Shown here: piece by piece, positions 11,401 through 13,983 of the stretch
Numbering within the stretch: position 1 is the first letter of the stretch
How the letters are laid out: each line of letters starts with the position of its first letter
The notes under the pieces: generated by a model
Told to the model about the DNA's origin: nothing
What the model saw: the letters and a program-made list of their open reading frames with translations, nothing else
Databases searched by the model: none
Assembly (NCBI GenBank): GCA_037439865.1
Contig: JBBIVG010000003.1
Location: 1-39,698 of the forward strand
Origin: Nevskiaceae bacterium
GTDB taxonomy: Bacteria; Pseudomonadota; Gammaproteobacteria; Steroidobacterales; Steroidobacteraceae
Reading direction: 5' to 3'
DNA: 39,698 nucleotides
Program-made: the position numbers and the translations under genes

Positions 11401-13983
11401 CAGGAAAAGAATTCGGTGCCTGGCACCTATTTTTTCCTTGTCGGCGAGGTGGCCGGCGAGCTTCAGTCGCTGGGCCTCGCCGCCCGACAGCGTCGGCACC
11501 GGCTGGCCCAGCCGAAGATAGTCGAGACCGACGGCGACGAGTGGCTCGAGGCACGCGAGCACGTCCGGGTCGTCCGCAAAGAAGTCCGCCGCCTCCGAGA
11601 CCGTCATGTCGAGCACGTCCGCGATGCTCTTCGCGGGCCCGGACCCGCGCGCCATCTTCACGTCGAGAGTCTCGGGCCGATAGCGCCGGCCGTCGCAGTC
11701 CGGACAACGCAGATAGACGTCCGAGAGGAACTGCATTTCGACGTGCTCGAAGCCGTTGCCGCTGCAGGTCGGACAGCGCCCGGTGCCCGAGTTGAAGCTG
11801 AACGTTCCGACGGTGTAGCCCCGCTCGATCGAGACGGCTTCAGCGGCGAAACGTTTGCGGATCGCGTCGAACGCGCCGACGTAGCTCGCCGGGTTCGAGC
11901 GCGTGGTGCGACCAATCGCCGTCTGGTCCACCATCACGACCTCGGCGACGTGCTCGGCGCCACGCAAGGTACGGTGTGTGCCGGGTGCCTCGGTGGGCTT
12001 GCCCTTGGCTCGCAGCAGCGCCGGGAACAGCACGTCCTGGACGAGCGTGGACTTGCCCGAGCCGGAGACGCCCGTGATGCACACCAGGCGTTGCAGCGGT
12101 ATCTCCACATCCAGGTTTTTGAGGTTGTGCTCCGTCGCACCCTCGACGAGCAGTCGCGGCTCGCCCGGCACCGACCGGCCTCGAGCGCCCGCGGCGACAG
12201 CCGCATCACGCTGTCCGGACAGATACTGTGCCGTGAGCGTATCCGCGCCCAGCGCCAGCTCGGATGGCGCCCCGTCGAACACGACGCGGCCGCCGTGCTC
12301 GCCGGGGCCCGGGCCGAGATCGATGATGCGGTCGGCCGACAGCATGATCTGCGGATCGTGCTCGACCACGAGCAGCGAGTTGCCGTTGTCCCGCAACCGC
12401 AGCATCACGTCGATCACGCGCCGCATGTCGCGCGGGTGCAGGCCGATCGAGGGCTCGTCGAGCACGAACAGCGTGTTTACGAGCGACGTGCCGAGTGCCG
12501 TCGTCAGGTTGATGCGCTGGACCTCGCCGCCGGACAGCGTGCGCGACTGCCGGTCGAGGGTCAGGTAGCCGAGGCCCACGCGCACGAGGAAATCGAGTCG
12601 CGAGCGGATCTCACCGAGCAGCAGGTCCGCGGCCTCGTCGAGCGGCGCAGGCAGCGACAGCTCCTGGAAGAAGTCCCGCGCCCGCTCGATGGGCAGCAGC
12701 ATCATGTCGTGGATGTTGAGCCCGGACCCCGCGGCCTCGCTTCCGCCGAGGCGCCACAGCAAAGCCTCGGGCTTGAGCCGCGCACCGCCGCAGTCGCCGC
12801 AGGGCGTGTAGCTGCGGTACTTCGACAGCAGCACCCGGATGTGCATCTTGTAGCTCTTGGTCTCGAGCCACGCGAAGAAACGCTTCGCGCCGTACCAGAC
12901 TTTCCGCTCCCACGGGCCCTCGCCGTCGATGACCCAGCGGCGCTGCTCCTCCGACAGCTCGCCCCACGGGGTGTCGAGCGGTACGCCCCGCTTCCTGGCG
13001 AAGCGCACGAGGTCGTCCTGGCACTCGCGGTAGGACTCGGACTGCCAGGGCTTCACCGCCCCACCGCGCAGCGTCTTCGTGGCGTCCGGCACGACCAGGT
13101 CGTAGTCCACGCCGATCACGCGCCCGAAGCCGCGGCAGGTCTCGCAGGCCCCGAGCGGCGAGTTGAACGAGAAGAAGCTCGGCGTCGGCTCGCGGTAGTG
13201 GATGTCGCAATCCGCGCAGTGCAGGTCGGACGAGTACCGGCGGACCGGGGACAGTCCCCAATTCGAGGCAGCGAATTGGGGACTGTCCCCTGATTCCGCC
13301 CGTACGGTGACCCGCCCGCGCCCGACCCGCATCGCGGCCTCGAGCGCCTCGAGGACGCGGCTCGAGCCCGCGCTGCCGAGCCGAAACCGGTCCTGGACGA
13401 CTTCCAGCACGCGGCCCTCCCGCGAGTGCATCCGCGTGTAACCCTGCTGCTCGAGCAGCCGCAGGACCTCCTGCTCCTCGAAATTCGCCGGCACGTTCAC
13501 CGGGAAAGTGACGAGTAGCCGCGCATCGCCCAGGGCGCCAGCCTGCGCCTCGAGGTCGCGCAGGATGCTCTCGGGCGAATCGCGGCGGACCGGCCGCCCG
13601 CAGCCGCGGCAATAGAGCCGTGCCGCCCGCGCGTAGAGGAGCTTCAGGTGGTCGTTCAGCTCCGTCATCGTCCCGACGGTCGAGCGGGACGTGCGCACCG
13701 GGTTGGTCTGGTCGATCGCGATCGCGGGCGGGATGCCCTCGATGCGGTCCACCTGGGGCTTGTCCATGCGGTCGAGGAACTGGCGGGCGTAGGGGGAGAA
13801 CGTCTCCACGTAGCGTCGCTGCCCCTCCGCATAGACGGTGTCGAAGACGAGCGAGGACTTTCCCGAGCCGGAAACCCCCGTCACGACGACGAGTTGCCGC
13901 AGGGGAATGTCGAGGTCCAGGGCGCGCAGGTTGTTCTGCCGCGCGCCACGGATCCGTATGGAATCGTGCGCCTGGTCGGTCAT
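8488..13983 (-). CDS. Tandem UvrA-UvrA fusion protein (excinuclease ABC subunit A paralog), 1,831 aa with four ABC nucleotide-binding modules
   Basis: There are four GVSGSGKS(S/T)L Walker A sites and four LSGGE(A/V)QR signature motifs, each followed by a DEP(S/T)xGLH Walker B region. Zinc-module cysteine pairs are present (CRGCG, CADCD, CETC, CGDC in unit 1; CPDC, CPSC, CTDC, CQSC in unit 2). A basic/Pro linker (ERQRARQAGRADVPKQQPTAPRVED) lies at about 11056-11150. Confidence 0.92.
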   Translation of the reverse strand: MTDQAHDSIRIRGARQNNLRALDLDIPLRQLVVVTGVSGSGKSSLVFDTVYAEGQRRYVETFSPYARQFLDRMDKPQVDRIEGIPPAIAIDQTNPVRTSRSTVGTMTELNDHLKLLYARAARLYCRGCGRPVRRDSPESILRDLEAQAGALGDARLLVTFPVNVPANFEEQEVLRLLEQQGYTRMHSREGRVLEVVQDRFRLGSAGSSRVLEALEAAMRVGRGRVTVRAESGDSPQFAASNWGLSPVRRYSSDLHCADCDIHYREPTPSFFSFNSPLGACETCRGFGRVIGVDYDLVVPDATKTLRGGAVKPWQSESYRECQDDLVRFARKRGVPLDTPWGELSEEQRRWVIDGEGPWERKVWYGAKRFFAWLETKSYKMHIRVLLSKYRSYTPCGDCGGARLKPEALLWRLGGSEAAGSGLNIHDMMLLPIERARDFFQELSLPAPLDEAADLLLGEIRSRLDFLVRVGLGYLTLDRQSRTLSGGEVQRINLTTALGTSLVNTLFVLDEPSIGLHPRDMRRVIDVMLRLRDNGNSLLVVEHDPQIMLSADRIIDLGPGPGEHGGRVVFDGAPSELALGADTLTAQYLSGQRDAAVAAGARGRSVPGEPRLLVEGATEHNLKNLDVEIPLQRLVCITGVSGSGKSTLVQDVLFPALLRAKGKPTEAPGTHRTLRGAEHVAEVVMVDQTAIGRTTRSNPASYVGAFDAIRKRFAAEAVSIERGYTVGTFSFNSGTGRCPTCSGNGFEHVEMQFLSDVYLRCPDCDGRRYRPETLDVKMARGSGPAKSIADVLDMTVSEAADFFADDPDVLACLEPLVAVGLDYLRLGQPVPTLSGGEAQRLKLAGHLADKEKIGARHRILFLFDEPTTGLHFEDVSKLLGAFRRLLDAGHSLVVIEHNIDVIRAADWVIDLGPEGGERGGTLVAEGTPAEIMQREDSHTGRALVEYEAERQRARQAGRADVPKQQPTAPRVEDAARDSIVVHKAREHNLRDVDVSIPRDGMTVVTGVSGSGKSTLAFDIVFAEGQRRYLESLNAYARQFVQPAGRPDVDAIYGIPPTVAIEQRTSRGGRKSTVGTLTEVHHFLRLLYVKLGTQHCPDCEVPIEPQSADAIVARLLRDARNRRIGLLAPLVVARKGYYTDLAKWAAGKGYGRLRVDGEYVSTQPWPRLDRFREHTIELPVGEVAVGPKSERELRETVQRALDLGKGVVHVLDRGRVRVFSTRRACPSCGRSFAEPDPRLFSYNSKHGWCTDCYGTGLAIKGFDEEQSGEEIWWNEWFEGEAAACQSCDGQRLNPEALAVRFRDRSIAQLSTLPVNDSLAFFGKLKLAGREREIARDLLAEIRSRLAFLQDVGLGYISLDRAAPTLSGGEAQRIRLAAQLGSNLQGVCYVLDEPTIGLHPRDNEILLDSLERLGSKGNTLLVVEHDEETIRRADHVIDLGPGAGARGGRVVGQGRIDDLVAAPESLTGRFLANPLRHPLGDRRRVRRGDPALAIEQAALHNLRKVNATVPLGRLTVVTGVSGSGKSTLARDILFANLRLRAGEKRRRGRAPDWIGCKAISGFDQVERVLEVDQTPIGRTPRSCPATYVGFWDDIRRLFAGTTESRVRGYSPSRFSFNTAGGRCDACEGQGVQTIEMSFLPNVKVLCDACGGRRFNAETLGVEYRGRSIGDVLAMSVDEAVEFFTAHLRIHGALRLLQDVGLGYLTLGQQSPTLSGGEAQRIKLVTELARLRSGQRTVYVLDEPTVGLHMADVEKLVHVLHRLVDAGNTVVVIEHNLDVIAEADWIVDLGPEGGSGGGRVVVQGSPEQVAKATAKSHTAKVLKPFLAERGNIGGG
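11403..11437. repeat. Monomer of the GGTGCC-N-GGCACC palindromic unit lying inside the UvrA-fusion coding sequence
   Basis: The sequence is GGAAAAGAATTCGGTGCCTGGCACCTATTTTTTCC. Positions 11410-11432 match 23071-23093 at 23/23 nt. The outer GGAAAA/TTTTCC and inner GGTGCC/GGCACC arms are inverted repeats. Confidence 0.75.
13247..13290. repeat. Perfect inverted repeat (19-bp arms, 6-nt spacer) built from two GGGGAC-N-GTCCCC cores, lying inside the UvrA-fusion coding sequence
   Basis: The sequence is GGGGACAGTCCCCAATTCG-AGGCAG-CGAATTGGGGACTGTCCCC, which I checked base by base. On the minus strand it translates in frame as GDSPQFAASNWGLSP. Confidence 0.85.

Follow-up and report, generated by a model that had tools for sequence, protein, structure and literature searches.

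The question raised by this locus is how an intact DNA-repair gene comes to carry a perfect palindrome within its reading frame. The gene encodes a double-UvrA protein and lies in a 39,698-nt (39.7 kb) stretch of contig JBBIVG010000003.1 from a Nevskiaceae bacterium; this whole stretch is called the window here. The palindrome is 44 nt long and its position in the gene is called site A. With considerable confidence, we read it as a doublet of repetitive extragenic palindromes (REPs) of the kind known as a REPIN, located in frame in a tolerant loop of UvrA and carried there as a near-neutral passenger. The gene and the element are placed as follows.

8488–13983, minus strand: double-UvrA (UvrA-UvrA fusion) gene, intact, 1831 amino acids, carrying two in-frame REPs.
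13247–13290, minus strand: site A, probable REP doublet (REPIN-like), predicted to be translated in frame as GDSPQFAASNWGLSP, amino acids 232–246.

The inverted repeat at site A consists of two arms of 19 nt each (13247–13265 and 13272–13290), which are 100% complementary and are separated by a loop of 6 nt (13266–13271). The 13-nt palindrome GGGGAC-W-GTCCCC is part of both arms. Read along the coding strand, the element is GGGGACAGTCCCCAATTCG-CTGCCT-CGAATTGGGGACTGTCCCC, and the unit GGGGACAGTCCCCAATTCG is flanked by GAATCA and GGTCCG. Sequence and coordinates are thus as described in the first-pass annotation of this DNA, and the peptide given there is correct for the minus-strand gene, the DNA having been printed as the plus strand. 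As single-stranded DNA, site A has a folding energy of −30.7 kcal/mol, against −10.7 ± 2.3 kcal/mol for shuffled sequences (z = −8.5). With up to one mismatch allowed, the window holds three copies of the 13-mer (at 3239, 13247 and 13278), where 0.16 would be expected, and none of 100 shuffles reaches three. Site A therefore combines a short, hairpin-forming palindromic unit with the inverted pairing of two such units around a short spacer, both of which are characteristics of REPs and REPINs. No terminator-like or promoter-like site accompanies the hairpin, the terminator scan having covered both strands from 12900 to 13700; the stem is followed by GGTCCGCCGG, which does not make it an intrinsic terminator (a GC-rich hairpin followed by a run of T). 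A scan of the window at the Rfam gathering thresholds gave no match, and a full-text literature search with the 13-mer retrieved unrelated eukaryotic primers only.

The 13-nt core of this first REP family, GGGGACWGTCCCC, is found on both sides of single genes for a Y1 transposase (PF01797) of the REP-associated tyrosine transposase (RAYT) type at three loci. In a metagenome-assembled genome (MAG) of Steroidobacter sp. (L112), the PF01797 gene occupies positions 125–832, with GAAATGGGGACTGTCCCCATTTC upstream; the core recurs close to the 3' end of this gene and immediately past its stop codon. The other two loci are metagenome contigs unrelated to this MAG: in L101 (55% G+C) the Y1 transposase gene lies between cores at 731 and 1520, while in L062 (28% G+C) it lies between inverted flanks of about 50 nt. 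The RAYT proteins of L062 and L101 are only 29% identical, yet both genes lie between copies of one and the same 13-nt core, itself bordered by ATT-type flanks. Other RAYT homologues from Steroidobacteraceae, 61–65% identical to the L101 protein, have inverted flanking REPs that begin with AAATGGGGAC, the same head as is present in other elements of the UvrA loops. A further gammaproteobacterial RAYT gene (L026) is flanked by inverted REPs of the CGGGGTCAGACACC type (3450–3478 and 4251–4305). A tblastn search with an approximate E. coli RAYT query gave weak matches only, among them L026 and L062, both of which were then confirmed with Pfam. The core-flanked genes are arranged as in REP-RAYT systems, and the 44-nt element is a REPIN-like doublet of REPs.

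The fate of the same position in other genomes is informative. Searches for orthologues returned 119 further double-UvrA proteins, 71–89% identical, which makes 120 with that of the window; those with names come from Steroidobacteraceae and related gammaproteobacterial MAGs. The stretch between the GRGRVxV and WR(Y/F)SxDLHC motifs, in which site A is located, is hypervariable and measures 10–72 residues between the anchors used. The shortest orthologues have 3–5 residues at site A, against about 16 in the protein of the window, so the segment before CADCD is indeed lengthened, as had been noticed from the sequence. DNA was compared for nine genes, that of the window and those of L051–L057 and L113, in which site A is occupied as follows.

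L051 (the nearest orthologue, 89% identical): eight unrelated residues.
L052: two cores flanking a 33-nt spacer.
L053: two cores and a perfect hairpin of another family with 20-bp arms, GGGGACATTCTCCTTTTCGA.
L054 and L055: site A short, no palindrome.
L056: two cores in tandem.
L057: several cores.
L113 (75% identical): four tandem hairpins, CCCTCTCCCGC-N4-GCGGGAGAGGG, belonging to a third family and repeating every 45 nt.

Depending on the orthologue, one and the same DNA core at site A yields GDSP, GQSP, GLSP or GDCP, being read in different frames; it is therefore the DNA that the orthologues share, and not the peptide. At least three REP families are found in the site A loop, in differing reading frames. 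Perfect hairpins with stems of at least 15 bp inside the nine genes are all located at site A or at a second site, site B, described below (six of six); stems of 10 bp and more are swamped by the GC-rich background, and only those of at least 15 bp are informative. The window and L056 share the right-hand junction, GTCCCC followed by GGTCCGCCG.TAC, and L052 comes close to it, the interior being different. This shared junction, together with the other REP arrangements in most close relatives, points to long occupation with remodelling, and the loop seems to have been occupied and remodelled over a long time rather than to have received one clean insertion. The first-pass annotation had proposed a single insertion of about 45 nt, or 15 codons. 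The eight unrelated residues of L051 and the differing arrangements in most close relatives do not agree with that. It had also named two outcomes that would tell against a repeat, a homologous peptide of equal length in orthologues that lack the palindrome, and an absence of further copies. Neither was seen: orthologues without the palindrome are short at site A, peptides of the GDSP...GQSP type come with the same DNA core, and the core or arm is found beyond the UvrA fusion, both in the window and in related genomes.

The fusion protein consists of two complete UvrA units joined. Unit 1 (amino acids 1–960) aligns end to end with the solved UvrA structure 3zqj (E = 1.3e-235), and an AlphaFold2 model of this unit has a mean predicted local distance difference test score (pLDDT) of 74.9. 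Site A is at the tip of a beta-hairpin just ahead of the second cysteine pair of zinc module 1 in the first UvrA unit, and GDSPQFAASNWGLSP ends nine residues ahead of HCADCD. In the model, pLDDT falls below 50 at residues 233–244, the loop of this beta-hairpin (strands 224–230 and 247–251), and again at residues 851–854, at site B, between a helix (834–849) and a strand (858–863). The structure around both low-scoring stretches is modelled confidently. On this model, the 15 residues encoded by site A are probably disordered. The site A doublet contains no stop codon in any of its six frames, as do 6.9% of shuffled sequences, so a copy of suitable length in a permissive loop leaves the gene unbroken. 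If site A is read through, the tryptic peptide predicted for the UvrA fusion is AESGDSPQFAASNWGLSPVR.

The first-pass annotation reported one in-frame element in this gene. Site A stands, but a second in-frame REP, of another family, had been overlooked (at 11410–11430), so that the fusion carries one dimer and one single REP, from two families.

11403–11437, minus strand: site B, single REP of the second family, an imperfect hairpin, GGAAAAAATAGGTGCCAGGCACCGAATTCTTTTCC, with core GGTGCCAGGCACC.

Site B reads in frame as EKIGARHRI, at about amino acids 850–860, in the loop of unit 1 between the ABC signature LSGGEAQRLKLAG and the Walker B motif LFLFDEPT. Measured between the anchors used, this loop has 14–59 residues in the 120 orthologues, many of which have palindrome-type peptides there. 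The core GGTGCCAGGCACC is identical base for base in the window, L051 and L057, while the stem flanks of the L051 and L057 units differ from those of the window. In L055 (6388–6418, orthologue P0015), site B is filled by two tandem GGGGACAGTCCCC cores, LAGRLGDSPLAGDSPLFLFDEPT, which shows that family 1 uses both hot spots, in different lineages. The REPs of the CGGGGTCAGACACC type around the RAYT gene of L026 resemble GKSVSVPNF and GTLTDFP, peptides that many orthologues have at site B. In unit 2, the counterpart of the site B loop, called site D (amino acids ~1728–1734), also varies in length among the 120 orthologues, in none of which was a REP-type peptide found at that site. Matches to GTVP near amino acid 1730 were considered as REPs and rejected as chance peptide matches.

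Both families have further members in the window, outside the UvrA fusion.

23032–23100, no strand assigned: intergenic doublet of the second REP family, with 34-nt arms, 97% complementary, and 1 nt between them.
3234–3255, no strand assigned: single hairpin of the first REP family, with its core at 3239–3251, filling the space that separates the stop codons of two convergent ORFs (open reading frames).

The 21-mer ATAGGTGCCAGGCACCGAATT at 11410–11430, within site B, is exactly equal to both arms of the doublet at 23032–23100. This makes three exact copies in the window, where none are expected, and identifies the site B unit as a dispersed repeat. In all, the window has three first-family cores, one of them intergenic, and three second-family units. 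The copy at 3239–3251 is intergenic, as had been recorded in the earlier annotation. The gap that it fills follows an aldehyde-dehydrogenase-like gene, and strong hairpins are present in this gap also in L055 (16202–16269, 31-bp stem) and L056 (18900–18948, 17-bp stem); the gap appears to be a conserved extragenic REP site. At the intergenic doublet, the last codons and the TAG stop of an ORF on the minus strand (23088–23960, ending ...FRGK*) lie inside the right arm. If this ORF is real, the REP doublet may supply its stop codon.

Scans with the 19-nt arm, which returned at least 50 loci each, show that it recurs in Steroidobacteraceae and related MAGs (L016, L019, L022, L025, L042 and others) as well as in other phyla. 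Pairs of arms 51 nt apart are found in many Steroidobacteraceae-like contigs inside the first 35 codons of an ORF annotated as YgjP-like (PF01863), for example in L019 (2472–2600) and also in L003, L022, L068, L070, L077, L084, L091, L096, L099, L104 and L107. The ATG of this ORF overlaps the stop codon of an upstream FadH-like gene (...NGDSPQFEMAFP...RIGDSPLIR...). The arms of these pairs are kept and the spacer is variable, and the pairs may be coding or belong to a 5' untranslated region. In the window, the YgjP-like gene does not adjoin the FadH-like gene. A 25-nt palindrome, CGAATTGGGGACWGTCCCCAATTCG, which contains the 13-nt core, is present in Atopobiaceae isolates (Olsenella and Thermophilibacter; L001–L048). 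Tandem arrays of the core are found in a Conexibacter MAG (L017, 1877–2001, five copies with a period of 28 nt) and in L059, with a period of 21 nt. The 13-nt core thus spans phyla and a range of 28–71% G+C, which is unusual for a REP core; REPs are usually lineage-specific.

The first-pass annotation had supposed that this kind of element was undescribed. In-frame REPs in uvrA genes, double-UvrA fusions included, have however been listed by Di Nocera, De Gregorio and Rocco (2013; BMC Genomics 14:522, PMC3733652), who found single and dimeric REPs in frame in intact genes, encoding 7–30 residues, often at two sites per gene and with a bias to excinuclease ABC, UvrD, RecBCD and DnaE2. Their list includes Tgr7_1444 of Thioalkalivibrio, a double-UvrA excinuclease A subunit of 1889 amino acids, with REP dimers at 865–887 and 1761–1783, and two proteins of Opitutus terrae: Oter_2709, a double-UvrA protein of 1995 amino acids, with a single REP at 638–644 and a dimer at 1601–1623, and Oter_3168, a UvrA of 999 amino acids, with a dimer at 224–239 (PMC3733652). 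By residue number alone, positions 224–239, 865–887 and 1761–1783 would fall near sites A, B and D, respectively. Site D is without REP-type peptides in our 120 orthologues, unlike the region of Tgr7_1444 that contains the dimer at 1761–1783. The window resembles the published cases in having single and dimeric REPs in frame in an intact uvrA gene, at two sites. It differs from them in its Steroidobacteraceae host and its REP families, and in that the units of the window carry neither the GTAG nor the CGTC tag that theirs carry. The published cases come from single genomes, whereas here the same two loops are seen to be refilled by different families over 120 orthologues. Since uvrA genes with in-frame REPs were already recorded in that work, site A is a further case of a known phenomenon; what is added is the recurrence at two loops over many orthologues, the involvement of several REP families and the turnover between close relatives.

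Two other systems invite comparison. REPINs are almost entirely extragenic and reach tens to hundreds of copies (Bertels and Rainey 2011, PMC3116915). Site A shares with them the two inverted REP hairpins around a short (6-nt) spacer, the single RAYT-type gene flanked by the same REP (L112, L101, L062) and the presence of other copies between convergent genes; it differs in that the site A copy is coding, has no GTAG tag and has no identical doublet found elsewhere. The likeness to Rickettsia palindromic elements (RPEs), drawn in the first-pass annotation, is apt in so far as a dispersed palindromic repeat is carried in frame by an intact repair gene. RPEs are the classical case of palindromes within coding sequence, and the likeness is one of behaviour only: an in-frame palindrome in an intact gene, in a low-confidence surface loop away from the catalytic motifs. 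RPE-1 is given as about 100–150 bp long and as encoding a conserved peptide (Ogata et al. 2000, as cited in PMC3733652 and PMC10969869), whereas site A has 44 nt, is linked to RAYT genes and occurs in several frames among orthologues. Rickettsia is moreover an obligate intracellular alphaproteobacterium, while the host here is a gammaproteobacterium of free-living type, similar to Steroidobacteraceae. Membership of the RPE sequence families was rejected on the grounds of size, host and multiple reading frames.

The sequence of events that we favour would begin with a repeat family whose core, GGGGACWGTCCCC, forms the hairpin that goes with a Y1 (HUH) transposase, of the RAYT type and present in single copy in Steroidobacteraceae. 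The repeat would be mobilised by a RAYT of the host genome, a doublet would have settled in frame in the permissive loop of the first UvrA unit, and it would be read through as 15 extra, probably disordered residues. Most likely, the doublet then persists as a near-neutral passenger. Several observations weigh against this account. The RAYT genes flanked by the core are from related genomes, the window being 39.7 kb of the host genome, and that length holds only three first-family cores, too few to speak for a high copy number. The exact doublet (the same arms with a spacer of 0–30 nt) was found neither in the metagenome collection, which does not include the source genome, nor among the matches listed in the arm scan of genome contigs (at least 50 loci). 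The nearest orthologue, L051, does not provide a clean empty site, having eight other residues there, and no target-site duplication or conserved target sequence was seen when the junctions were inspected by eye. Finally, neither the GTAG nor the CGTC tag is present in the unit GGGGACAGTCCCCAATTCG or its flanks, so that it is not filed in the two REP superfamilies of those names; despite the absence of a tag, it behaves like intragenic members of the tagged superfamilies.

Some of these observations are also what would be expected had the doublet been assembled within the loop out of an earlier REP, through template switching at a quasi-palindrome, an inverted duplication of local sequence or gene conversion from other REP copies, a history that departs from the favoured one only in its last step. 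The right-hand core is at the same junction in the window and L056, and nearly so in L052, with a differing interior; no second copy of the exact doublet was found in the scanned data; and the arms of site A are complementary at 38 of 38 positions, as expected from template-switch repair. The site B unit agrees over 21 nt with the intergenic copies in the window itself, while the L051 and L057 units differ in their stem flanks, which suggests homogenisation of copies within a genome. A fresh insertion beside or over an old REP would look alike, however, and REPs are known to cluster. We regard construction in place as a serious possibility, although we would put it at less than an even chance. 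An artefact of assembly or sequencing, for instance a fold-back chimera, is hardly credible as the origin of the palindrome. Fold-back artefacts can generate perfect palindromes, but this one is in frame in an otherwise intact ORF of 1831 amino acids, and L052, L053, L056 and L057, assembled independently from other samples, carry the same core at this site. An ordinary ancestral linker that is palindromic by chance, with no repeat element involved, would fit the hypervariable length of the loop across all 120 orthologues. The palindrome is far beyond chance, though, orthologues translate the same DNA core in different frames, and the core and arm are found outside the gene too, in the window and in related genomes, where they flank RAYT genes; the chance of this explanation being correct is very small.

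A role in the host gene, in which hairpins in mRNA or DNA tune expression or the loop extensions alter UvrA activity, as in the mutator idea of Di Nocera et al. (PMC3733652), would explain why the REPs are kept in the UvrA fusion. Two of the four REP sites of the window are in this one gene, the density of strong hairpins in UvrA-fusion genes is about 3–4 times that of the flanks, with those in the genes restricted to two loops, and the counterpart loop of unit 2, site D, varies in length without REP-type peptides. The core GGTGCCAGGCACC is also unchanged at site B in the window, L051 and L057, and the same bias to repair genes has been reported in other phyla (PMC3733652). The loci compared were chosen for the UvrA fusion and share ancestry, however, so the enrichment in hairpins is not an unbiased estimate. 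Family, copy number, orientation, frame and length differ among close orthologues, some of which are empty at site A, and neither the peptide nor a specific hairpin is conserved. So varied a set of families, frames and lengths speaks against a conserved function, as do the lack of a terminator-like or promoter-like site with the hairpin and of an Rfam match. We consider retention for function improbable. The broader idea that nucleotide-excision-repair genes are preferred targets of REPs, or preferentially keep them, because repair is modulated by the hairpin or by the loop that it encodes, is likewise a long shot; it may draw on the repeated presence of unrelated REP families in one pair of UvrA loops, both here and in the genera Thioalkalivibrio and Opitutus. 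If it were true, the elements might for example alter the UvrB-binding-domain hairpin or tune uvrA expression, and the REP/RAYT system would have a functional tie to the repair machinery by which its DNA intermediates are handled.

With the 44-nt palindrome read as a REP doublet and near-neutral passenger, the locus provides a well-documented case, with a wide orthologue comparison, of the little-studied class of translated intragenic REPs. One practical consequence concerns annotation, in that GDSPQF, GQSP, GARHR and similar peptides derive from repeats when they are met in metagenomic proteins. The question that Di Nocera et al. left in 2013, whether the bias of these elements to repair genes comes from selection, targeting or tolerance, could be addressed in this system. 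The same two loops of a UvrA-type ATPase serve as landing or retention sites for several REP families, and the turnover of REPs there between close relatives amounts to a natural map of the insertion-tolerant loops of UvrA.

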